From contig LKMN01000001.1 of NCBI GenBank assembly GCA_001563875.1, forward strand, positions 32,001 to 96,000: a stretch of 64,000 bases of DNA, written 5' to 3'. Below the pieces are notes generated by a model. It saw nothing but the letters and a program-made list of their open reading frames with translations, did not search any database and had not been told where the DNA came from. Below are positions 43,885-49,017 of this stretch, piece by piece. The translations under genes were made by a program, and so were the position numbers. The stretch is from Nanohaloarchaea archaeon B1-Br10_U2g1. Lineage in GTDB: Archaea; Nanohalarchaeota; Nanosalinia; Nanosalinales; Nanosalinaceae. Each line of letters opens with the position of its first letter. Positions within the stretch are counted from its first letter, which is position 1.

Positions 43885-44022
43885 GTCTTACTTCGTACAA
43901 TCCAAGCTGTTCAATGTCTTTGAACAGTTACTGTTCATAACCGTTCATAGAACCCATATTTTTGCACTATGCTGTTTCCACTTATGGTTACAAAAAGCTT
44001 TATTACACCAAACATTCTTAGG

Positions 44023-44301
44023 ATGGTAGAAAAGACTGAGGTAAAAAAGGTTTCGGAAAACGCACGTATCAACCTGTCTGAAGAAGAGACAGAAAAGTTC
44101 TCAAAAGAGTTTGAAACTATTCTTGAAGTATTCAATAAACTTGAAGAGATAGATACAGAGAACGTAGAGCCGGCATTCCATCCTATAGACGTAGAACCGG
44201 AGAAAAGAGAAGACAACGAAGAAGAAACTCTAACTGAAGAGGAAGTCTTCCAAAACACTGAAAATGAAGAAGAAGGATGGTTTAAAGGCCCTAGCGCATA
44301 A
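44023..44301 (+). CDS. gatC: Amidotransferase subunit GatC
   Basis: ARINLSEEE, IDTENVEP, REDN, GWFKGP. Confidence 0.92.
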   Translation: MVEKTEVKKVSENARINLSEEETEKFSKEFETILEVFNKLEEIDTENVEPAFHPIDVEPEKREDNEEETLTEEEVFQNTENEEEGWFKGPSA

Positions 44302-44310
44302 ATACACGTT

Positions 44311-44799
44311 ATGAAGATAGGAGTAATATCTGATACACACGACAATATTGAAGTAACTAAAAATGCTTTAGAACACTTCTCAGACAAAGAGGTGGACGTT
44401 GTCATCCACTGTGGAGACATGGTAGCTCCTTTTACAGCTGAACTTTTCGATAAAGACTTCGATTTCTATGCAGTGAAAGGAAACAACGACGGCGAATGGA
44501 GTCTAAGAGAAACTGTTGAAGAGTTCGGAACCTGGCTAGGGGATATAGGAGAACTTGAATTCGAGGGATACAGTATCGCGGTCTACCACGGAACAGAACA
44601 GGCAATAGTCGAATCACTGGTCTCTTCTGGAAAGTACGACTACGTTCTGAGAGGTCATACCCATACGAAAACTATACGTGAACAAGACGGCACAATCGAA
44701 CTCAATCCTGGAGGTATAAAGCTCCCTGAGAGCTCAGAAGAGTTCCATATAGCTGTTCTAGATCTTGATACAGGCAATATAAGGCTTCACAAAGTCTGA
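44311..44799 (+). CDS. YfcE/MJ0936-type metallophosphoesterase
   Basis: SDTH, HCGD, GNND, HG, GHTH, NPG. Confidence 0.92.
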   Translation: MKIGVISDTHDNIEVTKNALEHFSDKEVDVVIHCGDMVAPFTAELFDKDFDFYAVKGNNDGEWSLRETVEEFGTWLGDIGELEFEGYSIAVYHGTEQAIVESLVSSGKYDYVLRGHTHTKTIREQDGTIELNPGGIKLPESSEEFHIAVLDLDTGNIRLHKV

Positions 44800-45079: not shown

Positions 45080-46456
45080 ATGGGTATAAAGCAGATAGTA
45101 GAAGAGAACAAAGAGTTTGAACATTCAAAGTTCTTGGATGAACTGAGATCAAAAGACTCTAAGCTAAACTTCATGAGGGAGACAGTCGAACCTGAAGAGA
45201 ACAACGGTGATCTGAATGGAGTACCATTTGTCGTAAAAGACGCTATCTGCACAGAAAATGTTGTAACATCTGCAGGCTCAAAAATAATCGAAGACTACAA
45301 ACCAGTTTTTGATGCAACAGTTGTCAAAAAACTGAAAAAGGAAGGAGCAACCTTCTACGGTAAAACAAATCAAGACGAATTTGGATTTGGAACATTCTCA
45401 ACCAACTGCGCGTTCGAAACTCCAAAAAACCCTCACGACTCTGAAAGAGTTGTTGGAGGTAGCAGTGGAGGCGCAGGGGCAGTAGTAGCCGCAACAGATT
45501 ACCCAATAATCTCGATAGGAGAGTCTACAGGAGGTTCGATAACAAATCCTGCAGCATACAACGGGGTTATAGGGATAACACCTACCTATGGAAGAGTATC
45601 ACGTCAAGGACTAATAGACTATGGAAACTCGCTGGACAAGATAGGAGTACTCACGAAAACAGTTTATGGTGCAGCTAAAGGGCTGGAAGTAATATCTGGC
45701 CACGATAAAAACGATCAGACAACAGTGAAAGGCGCAGTGCCTGCGTTTTCAAACAATCTTGAAGAGAGAGAGGACCTGAAGATTGGTGTACCAAAACAGT
45801 ATATAGAGTTAGAGGGTATGGAAGAAGGAGTAAGAAAAAATTTTGAAGAGTCACTAGAGTTCTTTAAAGATCAAGGCTTCACAGTTGAGGAAGTTGACGT
45901 GCCACTGCTTGATGCAGATTACTCTGTAGCAGCATACTATGTTATAGCAATGGCTGAAGCTTCAACTAACTTAGCAAGATTTTCAGGGATTCGTTACGGA
46001 ATGGAGTTTGATACAGAGGAATACTCAGACTTCAATGAATACTTTTCAAAAGTTAGAACGGAAGGGTTTGGAGAAGAAGCTAAAAGAAGAATACTACTGG
46101 GAACATACACTAGACAGGCTGGTTACAGAGATCAGTATTATGTCAAAGCTGCGAAAGTTCGACGTAAGATAATCAACCAGCTAAAGGAAATATTCCAGGA
46201 TTATGATGTACTAATATCTCCTTCAATGCCTAATATAGCACCAAAGATAGAGGAAGCAGAATCAATGAGTCCTGAAGAAGTGTACGCAATGGACACACTT
46301 ACAGTAGGCCCGAACCTTGCCGGTATGCCTATGATATCAGTACCCAACGGAACCTCTGAAGGTATGCCAACCGGTTTACACGTAATAGGAGATCACTTCG
46401 AAGAACAAAAGATACTTGACGTTGCGTACACTTTTGAGAGAGGTGAGAAGAAGTGA
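45080..46456 (+). CDS. gatA: Amidotransferase subunit GatA
   Basis: VKD, GKTNQDEF, GGSSGG, GFGEEAKRRILLG. Confidence 0.95.
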   Translation: MGIKQIVEENKEFEHSKFLDELRSKDSKLNFMRETVEPEENNGDLNGVPFVVKDAICTENVVTSAGSKIIEDYKPVFDATVVKKLKKEGATFYGKTNQDEFGFGTFSTNCAFETPKNPHDSERVVGGSSGGAGAVVAATDYPIISIGESTGGSITNPAAYNGVIGITPTYGRVSRQGLIDYGNSLDKIGVLTKTVYGAAKGLEVISGHDKNDQTTVKGAVPAFSNNLEEREDLKIGVPKQYIELEGMEEGVRKNFEESLEFFKDQGFTVEEVDVPLLDADYSVAAYYVIAMAEASTNLARFSGIRYGMEFDTEEYSDFNEYFSKVRTEGFGEEAKRRILLGTYTRQAGYRDQYYVKAAKVRRKIINQLKEIFQDYDVLISPSMPNIAPKIEEAESMSPEEVYAMDTLTVGPNLAGMPMISVPNGTSEGMPTGLHVIGDHFEEQKILDVAYTFERGEKK

Positions 46457-47871
46457 GCGAGGAAACCGATGTAATGATAGGGCTGGAAACACATATACAG
46501 CTGGATACGGACACGAAACTGCTATGCGGCTGTCCAAACAAAGAAGCTGAAGAACCTAACAGTCACGTCTGTCCAACATGTCTAGGCCATCCGGGAAGCA
46601 AGCCAAGACTGAACAAAGCAGTACTGGACAAAGCAGTGAAAACCAGTCTAGCACTAGGCTGTGAAGTCAATAAAGATATCTTCTTCTCACGTAAGACATA
46701 CTTCTACCCGGATATGTCTAAAAACTATCAGATAACACAGTATGAAATCCCTGTGGGAGAGAAAGGCGAGCTAGAAGTAAAAATAGAGGATGAGAAAAAA
46801 CAAATCGGTATCACAAGACTTCATATAGAAGAAGATCCGGCAAAAATGAAACACGTTGGCGGAGACATAGGAAACTCTAAATACACACTTGTAGATTACA
46901 ATAGGGCCGGTACTCCTTTACTAGAAATTGTTACCGAACCTGACTTTGAGTCGCCGGAAGAGGCAAGAGCATACCTTCAGCAGCTAGCACAGATATTTGA
47001 GTATCTTGGACTTTACAGCCCGGATTCAGACTACGCAATTAAAAGCGACGCCAATATCTCAATCGAGGGTGGAGAAAAAGTTGAAGTCAAAAACATTACA
47101 GGAACATCTGAGGTAGAGAAAGCGTTAAGCTACGAAATCTCACGTCAGAAACAGATGACACGTAGGGGCCGAGAAATCAGACAACATACGAGAAGCTACA
47201 ACGCAGACATGGCTTCGACAAAGAAAATGAGAGACAAAGAAACCGAAGAAGACTACGGATACATCTTCGATCCGGATCTGACAAGACAGGAACTAGACAA
47301 AGAGTACCGGGAAAAAATTAAGTCTGATATTCCGGAACTCCCTCATGAGAAATTTGAACGTTTCCAAGATGAGTACGGCCTAACAGATAAACTTGTGGAG
47401 TCGCTTATAACTGAGCCTGAAATGGCTGAAGATTTTGAAGCTTTGGTTGGCAAACATGGACCAGAACTGCCGGCTTCATGGATGGCAGGAGAGTTAAAGA
47501 AAACACTTAACTATAATGAAACATCTTACTCTGAATCGGATATCCAGAGAGGCTGGCTCTCTGAACTTTTCAGGCTTTTAGAACAAGACGAAATATCAGA
47601 TAGAAACGCAGAACAAGTTCTGAGAGAGATTGTCGACGATCCAAGAAGTACTGAGAAAATTGTTCAAGAAAAGGATTTATTGAAAGCTGAAGAGTCAGAG
47701 ATAGACTCTATTGTAATAGAGGTTGTTGAACAAAACTCCGACGCTGTTGAAGACTACAGGTCAGGAGAAGAAGGAGCAATTAACTTCCTAGTAGGACAGG
47801 TTATGCAGAAAAGCCAAGGAAAAGCTGATCCTAAAACAGCACGTGAGAAAATAACTGAAGAGATAGAATGA
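46453..47871 (+). CDS. gatB: Amidotransferase subunit GatB
   Basis: IGLETH, RKTYFYPD, HIEED, DYNRAGTPLLEIVTEPD. Confidence 0.97.
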   Translation: MSEETDVMIGLETHIQLDTDTKLLCGCPNKEAEEPNSHVCPTCLGHPGSKPRLNKAVLDKAVKTSLALGCEVNKDIFFSRKTYFYPDMSKNYQITQYEIPVGEKGELEVKIEDEKKQIGITRLHIEEDPAKMKHVGGDIGNSKYTLVDYNRAGTPLLEIVTEPDFESPEEARAYLQQLAQIFEYLGLYSPDSDYAIKSDANISIEGGEKVEVKNITGTSEVEKALSYEISRQKQMTRRGREIRQHTRSYNADMASTKKMRDKETEEDYGYIFDPDLTRQELDKEYREKIKSDIPELPHEKFERFQDEYGLTDKLVESLITEPEMAEDFEALVGKHGPELPASWMAGELKKTLNYNETSYSESDIQRGWLSELFRLLEQDEISDRNAEQVLREIVDDPRSTEKIVQEKDLLKAEESEIDSIVIEVVEQNSDAVEDYRSGEEGAINFLVGQVMQKSQGKADPKTAREKITEEIE

Positions 47872-48776
47872 AGGCTCACAAAGTCCTAGATCAGATTGGT
47901 ATAGAGTACGAACTTGTAGAACAAGATAATCCTACAAAGGACTGTGATGCTGCAGCTAAAGAACGTGGAATTAAGACATGTCAGATTGTAAAAAGTCTTT
48001 TGGTCGAGAGAGACGGTGAAAAACTCCATCTCTGTATTCCTGGAGATAGGAAGCTGTCGGAGAAAAAATTTGGAGAGTACAGACTTCTACCTTCTGAGGA
48101 GTCGGAGAGGATTACAGGGTTTGAATCAGGTACTATACATCCACTTTCTTCAGATCTTAAACATTTTGTAGATGAAAGGGTTTTCGAAAACGATAAAGTC
48201 TCCTTTACTATAGGCGAGACACTTAGAGGATTGATAGTAAGCTCTAAGGGCTTCAAAAAGGCTTTACAAGACCAAGACTTCAAATCGGTTGTACAGGACA
48301 TAGTTTCCGTTGAAGAGAGGGAGATTGAGCAGATTAAAGAGAAAGGGCTCTCTGAGGAAGAAGCAAGCTTTATTGTCAAGAACGGTTACAGAAAAAGGTT
48401 CCTAGAGTTAGAAAATATTTATACTGCTCAAGAGATATTTACGGTTACAAAGAAACTTCACAGAGATATACCGGATTTTTCTAGGGATCAGGCGTCCAAA
48501 ATACTTGATAAAGCGGAGAATGAAACCCATATACAGAAACTTGTTGAACATCTATTTACCGACGGAGAACTTCCTGAAGAAAACAGTTTCTTGCTGGAAG
48601 AGACTGTAGAAAAAACAGTTGAGGAAAACCCTGAAGCTGTAAAAGACTACAGAGACGGCAACACATCCTCTCTAAACTATCTTATTGGACAGATAATGCA
48701 GAAAACTCAAGGACGCGCAGACGGTGAGAAAACCAGAAAACTACTTCTAAGTAGACTTGATAATAATGAATACTAA
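47868..48776 (+). CDS. YbaK/ProX editing domain fused to GatB-type C-terminal (Yqey) domain
   Basis: IVKSLLV, TGFESGTIHP; C-term YRDG..LNYLIGQIMQKTQGRAD. Confidence 0.8.
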   Translation: MKAHKVLDQIGIEYELVEQDNPTKDCDAAAKERGIKTCQIVKSLLVERDGEKLHLCIPGDRKLSEKKFGEYRLLPSEESERITGFESGTIHPLSSDLKHFVDERVFENDKVSFTIGETLRGLIVSSKGFKKALQDQDFKSVVQDIVSVEEREIEQIKEKGLSEEEASFIVKNGYRKRFLELENIYTAQEIFTVTKKLHRDIPDFSRDQASKILDKAENETHIQKLVEHLFTDGELPEENSFLLEETVEKTVEENPEAVKDYRDGNTSSLNYLIGQIMQKTQGRADGEKTRKLLLSRLDNNEY

Positions 48777-49017
48777 AGAGATCTACGAGAAAATAGAAGG
48801 GGAAGATGTTGGACAAAAAAGGTACTTGATGTCGAAGATAATTGACAAACTTCTAGAAGAGAAATATCCTCAGATAACTGTCGAAAAAAGGCTGGATAGA
48901 CTTAAACAGGATGAAGGATATCTTTACAAGCTTGTCCAAGATTTCTTCTTATCTTCAAGTACTATAGAGAAGGAGAGAAAACTAGAGAAGATAAGAGAAC
49001 ATACAGATTTATTTTAG
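48766..49017 (+). CDS. Hypothetical protein
   Basis: Overlaps previous stop, helical. Confidence 0.65.
   Translation: MNTKEIYEKIEGEDVGQKRYLMSKIIDKLLEEKYPQITVEKRLDRLKQDEGYLYKLVQDFFLSSSTIEKERKLEKIREHTDLF

Follow-up and report, generated by a model that had tools for sequence, protein, structure and literature searches.

A YbaK-type hydrolase domain on a GatB-type tRNA-binding module: a candidate trans-editing factor for tRNA-Asn in Nanohaloarchaea

The whole stretch of DNA analysed here (the window) comprises 64,000 nucleotides (nt) of Nanohaloarchaea archaeon B1-Br10_U2g1 (assembly GCA_001563875.1, contig LKMN01000001.1, positions 32,001 to 96,000 of the forward strand). It carries a gene for a protein of 302 amino acids (aa) in which an N-terminal hydrolase domain of the INS/YbaK fold is followed by a module homologous to the C-terminal part of GatB. 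From sequence and a structural model we tentatively propose that this YbaK-GatB fusion protein is a trans-acting deacylase on the GatB plan, aimed at tRNA-Asn and most likely clearing unamidated Asp-tRNA-Asn; we take this reading seriously while rating it somewhat short of probable. GatB is built as a cradle that holds the aminoacyl-CCA end, after which come a helical domain and a tail, and these two read the tRNA elbow. In the fusion protein the cradle is swapped, at the same boundary, for a YbaK/INS-fold hydrolase. A deacylase of this kind had been suggested earlier from the letters of the window (the original prediction); in biochemical terms it is still a sequence-based proposal, a plausible one, and it now has independent comparative backing. 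The features of the fusion gene, numbered by position in the window, are as follows.

47868..48776, + strand: YbaK-GatB fusion gene, 302 aa (open reading frame, ORF; Pfam PF04073 and PF02637; AlphaFold2 model with a predicted local distance difference test score, pLDDT, of 92)
47868..48308, + strand: INS/YbaK-fold N-terminal catalytic domain, residues 1-147 (VIA and Foldseek fold matches)
47991..47993, + strand: codon of Lys42, the INS superfamily's conserved lysine (invariant in 24/24 fusion family members)
48129..48143, + strand: GXXXP loop, G88-T-I-H-P92 (G88, H91 and P92 invariant in 24/24)
48309..48575, + strand: GatB-type helical domain, shortened, residues ~148-236 (hhalign; VIA against 3ip4_B; domain limits from PMC2811023)
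48576..48761, + strand: GatB-type (YqeY-like) tail domain, residues ~237-298 (phmmer, YqeY fold match, identity to the organism's own GatB tail)
47868..47871, + strand: ATGA, in which the gatB stop codon TGA overlaps the fusion start codon ATG (direct reading of the sequence)

Architecture of the fusion protein

The original prediction, which described a YbaK deacylase with a GatB tail, was exact in its coordinates, and both Pfam domains score above their cut-offs. The tRNA_edit profile (PF04073) matches residues 21-127 (E 4.5e-11, 43.3 bits against a cut-off of 25.5) and the GatB_Yqey profile (PF02637) matches residues 204-297 through profile positions 57-148 of 148 (E 2e-18, 67.1 bits against a cut-off of 27), both far beyond chance. 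The YbaK/ProX motifs named in that prediction, a lysine in IVKSL and a GxxxP loop, are likewise present. In an alignment (A1) of 24 fusion family members, made up of the window protein and 23 of 61 homologue clusters, K42 (in QIVKSL), H54, P58, G59, G88, H91, P92, R104, T114 and G116 of the N-terminal half are invariant. An AlphaFold model built on A1 has a mean pLDDT of 92 and a predicted template modelling (TM) score of 0.77. Its residues 1-148 match T. thermophilus ProX (2cx5_A, ProXp-x) with a VIA Z of 19.9 and a root-mean-square deviation (rmsd) of 1.8 over 143 aligned residues, APE2540 (1wdv) with a Z of 19.4 and H. influenzae YbaK (1dbx_A) with a Z of 19.0; Foldseek gave TM scores of 0.79-0.83 for the same domain. 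The protein is not YbaK proper, since it scores 40.4 bits against the cut-off of 153.25 of the YbaK equivalog NCBIfam TIGR00011.

INS-family enzymes hydrolyse mischarged tRNAs through the conserved lysine and the GXXXP loop (PMC11286415; papers are cited here by PMC number). By its sequence and predicted structure, the N-terminal domain of the fusion protein is a hydrolase-type INS/YbaK domain with the catalytic signature. The same lysine and loop are also described as stabilising the aminoacyl-tRNA (PMC11286415), so they are by themselves no proof of hydrolysis. A non-hydrolytic accessory has to be weighed, in which the YbaK-like domain would do no more than hold or shield the aminoacyl-CCA end, with the GatB-like module gripping the tRNA body, so as either to hand Asp-tRNA-Asn from aspartyl-tRNA synthetase (AspRS) to GatCAB or to protect the ester. 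Transamidosomes protect and channel this intermediate (PMC3367201), and in other archaea the editing domain is physically part of GatB. We nevertheless believe such a role to be very improbable: the characterised superfamily members named in the available parts of PMC11286415 and PMC11295145 are all hydrolases, the fusion protein has a full tRNA-binding module of its own, as expected of a factor that acts alone, and no sign of contact with GatB was obtained. A prediction of the complex of GatB with the fusion protein (alignments A3 and A1) scored 0.00, which is no verdict either way.

The C-terminal part was compared with an alignment (A3) of 22 nanohaloarchaeal GatB sequences, from which the one at locus L034 was omitted for an in-frame stop in its gatB match. 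This match, at L034:5270-6667 of Candidatus Nanosalinarum J07AB56, could reflect a sequencing error or a pseudogene. Alignment of A1 with A3 by hhalign gave a probability of 99.45% and an E of 4.7e-22 over 181 columns, covering GatB residues 265-472 up to the C-terminal end. Residues 148-302 of the model match S. aureus GatB residues 295-477 (3ip4_B; Z 9.7, rmsd 5.4, 155 aligned) and a model of human GATB (9a6e_A; Z 10.3). Human and yeast glutaminyl-tRNA synthetase (GlnRS) gave weaker fold matches through their N-terminal tRNA-binding domain (Z 5.4-6.5), and B. subtilis YqeY (1ng6) matches model residues 237-298 with a Z of 5.1. A Z of ~10 for the helical domain is not decisive alone, and it is the profile-profile sequence evidence that settles the homology to GatB.

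In S. aureus GatB the cradle spans residues 1-294, the helical domain 295-407 and the tail 412-475 (Nakamura et al., PMC2811023). Since the span of the profile alignment and of the model matches these limits, the C-terminal part is, by sequence and model, the whole post-cradle region of GatB, helical domain and tail, with the helical domain somewhat shortened (138 profile positions in the fusion protein against ~176 GatB residues). The hydrolase joins where the cradle would, fusion residue ~148 corresponding to GatB residue ~295. The likeness to the organism's own GatB noted earlier therefore stands, at 46% over 48 residues, although it is not confined to the end of the tail and takes in the helical domain as well. 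There is no match to the Pfam GatB_N cradle in the fusion protein, and at 54 bits against the GatB equivalog cut-off of 338 it is not a GatB.

The tail itself is 22/48 identical to that of the organism's own GatB (BLASTP E 2e-12 and 1e-13), compared with 31% over 51 residues, with two gaps and an E of 0.004, for its own GatE; the NCBIfam scores of the fusion protein are 54 bits for GatB versus 24.6 bits for GatE. By sequence the tail is thus of GatB and not of GatE type. Among solved structures, phmmer matched it to 3al0_B (E 1.9e-8) and 2df4_B, in each case to the tail of GatB. Invariant tail residues in A1 are G264, S267, G274, M277 and G282. The hydrophobic pocket described by Nakamura et al. 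(M452, G457 and A459) corresponds, in the phmmer mapping to 2df4_B, to M277, G282 and A284, which are invariant or nearly so, while the position equivalent to GatB P461 is variable in the fusion family. Binding of tRNA requires the GatB tail, which together with the helical domain reads the D-loop/variable-loop region, and archaeal GatCAB separates tRNA-Asn from tRNA-Asp by the tertiary core and not by the first base pair (PMC2811023).

In a quick tree of 38 C-terminal domains the fusion modules form their own long-stemmed clade, with a Shimodaira-Hasegawa-like approximate likelihood-ratio test (SH-aLRT) value of 96; nesting inside nanohaloarchaeal GatB was not seen in this unresolved tree. 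An origin of the module by recent duplication of the adjoining gatB is neither supported nor excluded by these sequences.

Editing domains linked to GatB

A domain-architecture search, the check put forward with the original prediction, returned the same two domains in all 61 near-length homologue clusters, the named ones being nanohaloarchaeal. A profile search with alignment A2 gave nanohaloarchaeal names only, and the ESM Atlas held only the fusion family's own cluster. Database labels of these proteins read 'YbaK/EbsC family protein' or 'prolyl-tRNA editing enzyme' and nothing else. A profile search of 1.84 billion representatives collected 9,630 proteins at E<=1e-3, just 18 of them at E<=1e-30, and among the collected proteins other arrangements of the same parts were found. 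P0067 (311 aa) and P0068 (329 aa) have the architecture of the window protein, P0067 with a full GatB_Yqey profile. A related group with this architecture (P0078, P0081, P0084 and P0085) carries low-complexity N-terminal extensions and is possibly eukaryotic. In P0074 (631 aa) and the fragment P0086, tRNA_edit is inserted in GatB, after the N-terminal IGLEIH...CxC and before CxxC, whereas in P0077 (626 aa) it stands on the N-terminal side of a complete GatB. The GatB equivalog cut-off of 338 is passed by both P0074 (528 bits) and P0077 (504 bits). When the first 200 residues of P0074 were searched against long proteins, 22 clusters of 609-709 aa were recovered, all with tRNA_edit, GatB_N and GatB_Yqey; they come from several sources, and P0217 is labelled 'GatB [archaeon]'. 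The GatB proteins with an inserted or N-terminal YbaK-like domain (P0074, P0086, P0208-P0228 and P0077) are from archaeal metagenomes. The consensus of this GatB-with-insert family (A5) keeps the GatB N-terminal motif ahead of the insert. Two editing domains are joined to synthetases instead: P0173 is a prolyl-tRNA synthetase (ProRS) with an N-terminal tRNA_edit, and in the 323-aa fragment P0126, tRNA_edit comes after the C-terminal end of an AspRS-like class IIb synthetase of bacterial type.

The editing domains of all collected proteins were extracted with the hidden Markov model of the family and placed in two trees. The first, a quick IQ-TREE run of 120 rows, held 15 of ~100 nanohaloarchaeal domains, 7 of the P0067/P0078 type, 24 GatB-fused and 74 stand-alone or other domains. 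The nanohaloarchaeal domains with those of the P0067/P0078 type (SH-aLRT 97) are sister to the GatB-fused domains (98), with an SH-aLRT of 93 for the joint branch. For the second tree, a careful run of 67 rows, four long-branch and four fragment rows were dropped, the fusion groups were thinned to 9 and 11, and 37 random stand-alone rows were included together with the organism's own paralogue and the two domains fused to ProRS and to AspRS. All GatB-linked domains separate from these 40 stand-alone, ProRS-fused and AspRS-fused domains with an ultrafast bootstrap of 99 and an SH-aLRT of 98, in a run whose bootstrap stopped short of full convergence (correlation 0.91). The editing domain of P0126 groups with the stand-alone proteins, outside the GatB-linked clade. 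The stand-alone rows are the best matches to the fusion family profile, so that sampling is biased towards near relatives, and the root is unplaced. From these sequences it is safe to say that editing domains joined to GatB parts in three ways form one group, apart from those sampled domains that stand alone or are fused to ProRS or AspRS. The lysine has a frequency of 1.00, and the G..P of the loop is kept at 1.00, across all three GatB-linked groups.

A wider idea, possible though doubtful, is that the GatB-linked YbaK-like clade serves the indirect route to Asn-tRNA-Asn and Gln-tRNA-Gln as its dedicated proofreading arm and hydrolyses the unamidated intermediate, in Nanohaloarchaea as a free enzyme with its own copy of the GatB tRNA sensor and in other archaea as a built-in part of GatB. 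A GatB with a built-in editing domain would then have two sites and either 'amidate or destroy', much as an editing synthetase does, the unamidated intermediate being hydrolysed each time amidation fails. On this idea the clade would provide the route with its first dedicated editing factor, and the INS superfamily with its first member whose tRNA-identity reader is borrowed. The clade may be one of the unnamed clusters of Kuzmishin Nagy et al. 2020, ProXp-7, -8 and -9 being listed as uncharacterised (PMC11295145).

Gene linkage, aminoacylation equipment and substrate

Neighbouring genes were compared by tblastn at 28 loci, obtained by scanning one genome per species. The locus titles are of Nanohaloarchaea type except for one contig of a Colwellia metagenome-assembled genome (MAG) and two or three named 'uncultured archaeon' or 'euryarchaeote'. 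The coupling to gatB foreseen in the original prediction was borne out. In the window the two genes share 4 nt (47868-47871), and at 27 of the 28 named nanohaloarchaeal loci gatB is the upstream gene, on the same strand, at a distance of at most ~60 nt in 18 of those 27. The other nine (L011, L015, L024, L025, L026, L030, L031, L034 and L035) have a spacer of 333-471 nt with one small ORF, which resembles a cupin in most (with a confirmed Pfam Cupin_2 match in L024) and a Nudix protein in L011 and L026 (with a confirmed Pfam NUDIX match in L026). The Colwellia contig (L016, filed under a 'Colwellia polaris' MAG) carries a complete nanohaloarchaeal ftsZ-gatCAB-fusion-PAN locus, and its assignment is probably a binning error.

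Across the phylum the fusion gene is present, at E<=1e-30, in 34 of 70 genomes and in 17 of the 28 of high quality. The corresponding figures are 59/70 and 27/28 for gatB, and 64/70 and 28/28 for a stand-alone YbaK-like gene. Presence of the fusion differs inside genera (e.g. g6, g15 and g21). We also inspected seven gatB loci from genomes that have no fusion gene. In four (G031, G065, G063 and G027) gatB is followed at once by the small ORF that lies downstream of the fusion gene in the window, with an overlap of 4 nt in G031; in G046 an unrelated 155-aa ORF stands between the two, and in G009 and G015 other genes follow gatB. The fusion gene is therefore positionally tied to gatB, yet dispensable and repeatedly lost or gained. 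Because of this tied position and patchy presence, its occurrence is that of an accessory quality-control factor and not of a pathway component. In G003 an apparent extra fusion partner was rejected, the 735-aa open frame being a high-GC artefact and the protein the usual 302 aa.

The genome of the organism (G000; 709,831 bp, 96.75% complete) was searched for its aminoacylation enzymes. Its sole class IIb synthetase passes the aspartate--tRNA(Asn) ligase equivalog (556.5 bits versus 353) and TIGR00458 (461 versus 368) and falls below the cut-offs for asparaginyl-tRNA synthetase (AsnRS); by these scores the AspRS is non-discriminating. No AsnRS or GlnRS was found in the genome, which has one glutamyl-tRNA synthetase (GluRS)-type enzyme, one GatB and one GatE, both GatCAB and GatDE being present. 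With only a non-discriminating AspRS, a single GluRS-type enzyme and these two amidotransferases, Asp-tRNA-Asn and Glu-tRNA-Gln are obligatory intermediates in this organism. In archaea GatCAB serves tRNA-Asn and GatDE serves tRNA-Gln. Given this division of labour and a tail of GatB type, tRNA-Asn is the likelier target, so that the tRNA-Asn/Gln target first suggested can be narrowed to tRNA-Asn. Its broader part, an aim at tRNAs of the transamidation pathway, gained comparative support from the GatB-built relatives, their grouping in one tree, the adjacency to gatB, the pairing of non-discriminating AspRS with GatCAB, and a separate YbaK-like gene. One tRNA-Met gene of the assembly (C9:1384-1521) has a 65-nt intron. 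The separate YbaK-like gene is a second, stand-alone one of 171 aa, 28% identical to the fusion N-terminal domain.

G000:C20:4399-4911 (= L001:1462-1977), - strand: stand-alone YbaK-like gene (TIGR00011 71.5 bits, below the cut-off of 153)

We envisage that the C-terminal module would dock the fusion protein on tRNA-Asn, the tRNA selected by archaeal GatCAB, and that the N-terminal domain would hydrolyse the ester bond, most likely of aspartate that has escaped amidation, when Asp-tRNA-Asn leaves or outruns GatCAB. Aspartate would in this way be kept from Asn codons. Because Asp-tRNA-Asn is an obligatory intermediate here, the deacylase would have to be outpaced kinetically by amidation and serve as a back-up, a role that fits the dispensability of the gene.

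Several observations weigh against the proposal. The breakdown of an obligatory intermediate would seem a waste in the absence of kinetic gating. The nearest solved folds of the N-terminal domain (ProX/ProXp-x 2cx5, APE2540 and YbaK) are prolyl-editing enzymes. In D. radiodurans GlnRS the GatB-type module may chiefly add general tRNA affinity, and both the amino-acid and the tRNA specificity of the fusion protein are ones that we infer from sequence. The lysine-rich motif specific to GatB, KXGKXK, is degenerate in the fusion protein (R-D-G-N-T-S; family consensus RxGKDS); the same segment is likewise lysine-poor in the organism's own GatB (R-S-G-E-E-G), and it is undeleted in the fusion, in contrast to its alignment with GatE. 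No tRNA-Asn gene was found in the assembly, in which 28 tRNA genes were detected and relaxed ARAGORN settings added only noise. At locus L029 the fusion gene lies among unrelated genes, away from gatB. Nine metagenome loci (L046-L054) with relatives of the P0078 type have no gatB nearby; their contigs hold little recognisable coding sequence, so the synteny is not seen a second time in them, and the match in L053 is split in a way that suggests an intron. Finally, the fusion is absent at E<=1e-30 from 36 of the 70 phylum genomes and from 11 of the 28 of high quality; as 10 of these 11 keep gatB, the transamidation pathway works without it.

The structural matches (Z 19-20) raise the alternative that the protein is an ordinary prolyl-tRNA editing factor, removing Ala, Cys or aminobutyrate from tRNA-Pro, with the GatB module as a generic affinity handle and the adjacency to gatB a consequence of duplication there. 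The ProRS of the organism, a 502-aa frame, is of the archaeal type (TIGR00408, 560 bits), which is not known to carry an editing insertion. ProRS mischarges both Ala and Cys, so that two factors could be needed (PMC11286415); the helical C-terminal domain of plant ProXp-ala boosts tRNA binding and Ala-tRNA-Pro deacylation (PMC9425024); and YbaK itself shows little tRNA selectivity (PMC11295145). Prolyl editing has, however, another candidate in the stand-alone YbaK-like gene, which all 28 high-quality genomes possess, whereas the fusion is patchy despite ProRS being essential. Relatives of the domain form part of complete GatB enzymes, in which a prolyl role makes little sense, and the GatB-linked domains form a group apart from the ProRS-fused P0173. 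The low score against the YbaK equivalog, together with a C-domain tree that shows no sign of a recent copy of the adjoining gatB, also argues against this explanation, which we consider unlikely.

A deacylase aimed at tRNA-Asn (or tRNA-Gln) might instead remove another group, either a mischarged or damaged aminoacyl residue or, as stress recycling, any aminoacyl residue. The targeting evidence would be the same as for the removal of aspartate, INS members differ widely in amino-acid specificity despite the common lysine and GXXXP loop (PMC11286415, PMC11295145), and a futile attack on an obligatory intermediate would be avoided. Nothing in the sequence indicates the specificity of the pocket. 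We know of no alternative mischarged species on tRNA-Asn, and we hold this explanation to be quite unlikely.

Known systems and the gatB locus

Indirect pathways to Asn-tRNA and Gln-tRNA must keep Asp-tRNA-Asn and Glu-tRNA-Gln off the ribosome. Discrimination by elongation factor also helps to keep such mischarged intermediates away. In the literature, protection is credited to channelling in the transamidosome (PMC3367201), which has been likened to an editing system in the same paper, and in one bacterium to hydrolysis by a synthetase: H. pylori GluRS2 hydrolyses excess Glu-tRNA-Gln (PMC3241645). The suggestion that no such quality-control step was known to be described has to be qualified on this one point. 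No description of a YbaK-GatB fusion was found in full-text searches of open-access papers, while clearing an unamidated intermediate is, as a concept, not entirely new in view of GluRS2. Like the proposed deacylase, GluRS2 clears the unamidated intermediate of an indirect pathway, but the H. pylori case involves the synthetase itself, in a bacterium, on tRNA-Gln, with no dedicated editing protein. What is new here is a candidate trans-editing factor whose tRNA-identity reader would be borrowed, and a clade of GatB-linked editing domains. If the favoured substrate is correct, a dedicated hydrolytic proofreader would add a new quality-control layer to the transamidation pathway and would explain why an editing domain is joined to GatB parts in at least three ways.

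The free-standing INS trans-editing factors (YbaK, ProXp-ala, ProXp-x, i.e. 2CX5, and ProXp-ST1/2) share the fold, the lysine and GXXXP loop and the free-standing state with the fusion protein. They are described, in the available part of PMC11295145, as single-domain proteins with no dedicated RNA-binding domain, whereas the fusion carries a 150-residue tRNA-recognition module, groups with GatB-linked domains and falls below the YbaK equivalog cut-off. Whatever its substrate, the fusion contradicts that current description. It is also a natural pair of separable hydrolase and tRNA sensor for studying how tRNA identity is grafted onto an editing enzyme. Compared with GatB of GatCAB, the helical domain and tail are homologous over their full length, the order of catalytic part, helical domain and tail is the same, and the genes adjoin; the fusion differs in having a hydrolase fold in place of the GatB_N cradle (kinase/transamidase) and a shorter helical domain.

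The GatB module was recruited twice by GlnRS, where it raises tRNA-Gln binding (PMC1865053, PMC3333875). In GlnRS with a GatB/YqeY-like domain, C-terminal in D. radiodurans and N-terminal in yeast and human, the same module is thus attached to an enzyme acting on an amide-pathway tRNA; its partner there is a synthetase and in the fusion protein an editing-type hydrolase. Plant ProXp-ala (~308 aa) is also a trans-editing enzyme with a helical C-terminal domain that raises tRNA binding and deacylation rate (PMC9425024). That domain is involved in dimerisation and poorly conserved, and the available part of the paper reports no sequence homology to translation-related domains, so the likeness is one of functional analogy only. 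The YbaK-like proteins of Leishmania and Trypanosoma were considered as a precedent and set aside, as the accessible parts of PMC3532385 and PMC11286415 describe no GatB-type module in them.

In the window the gene order is gatC, metallophosphoesterase, gatA, gatB, YbaK-GatB fusion, and the genes around the fusion are as follows.

43969..44301, + strand: gatC, 110 aa (Pfam GatC, E 1.4e-15)
44311..44799, + strand: calcineurin-like metallophosphoesterase, between gatC and gatA (Metallophos_2, E 1e-38)
45080..46456, + strand: gatA, 458 aa, amidase (Pfam Amidase, E 7.6e-116)
46453..47871, + strand: gatB, 472 aa (NCBIfam GatB equivalog, 562 bits against a cut-off of 338; Pfam GatB_N and GatB_Yqey)
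48766..49017, + strand: small conserved ORF, 83 aa when counted from its ATG at 48766 (sequence; tblastn matches in most loci)

The small ORF covers the last 11 bases of the fusion gene. Neither Pfam nor NCBIfam gave a match for it, and it may belong to the gatB operon as well. By tblastn, the metallophosphoesterase occupies the interval between gatC and gatA in many related loci too. The genes gatA and gatB overlap in the window, and in many relatives (L013, L014, L018, L021, L027 and others) they lie 1.3-2.1 kb apart.

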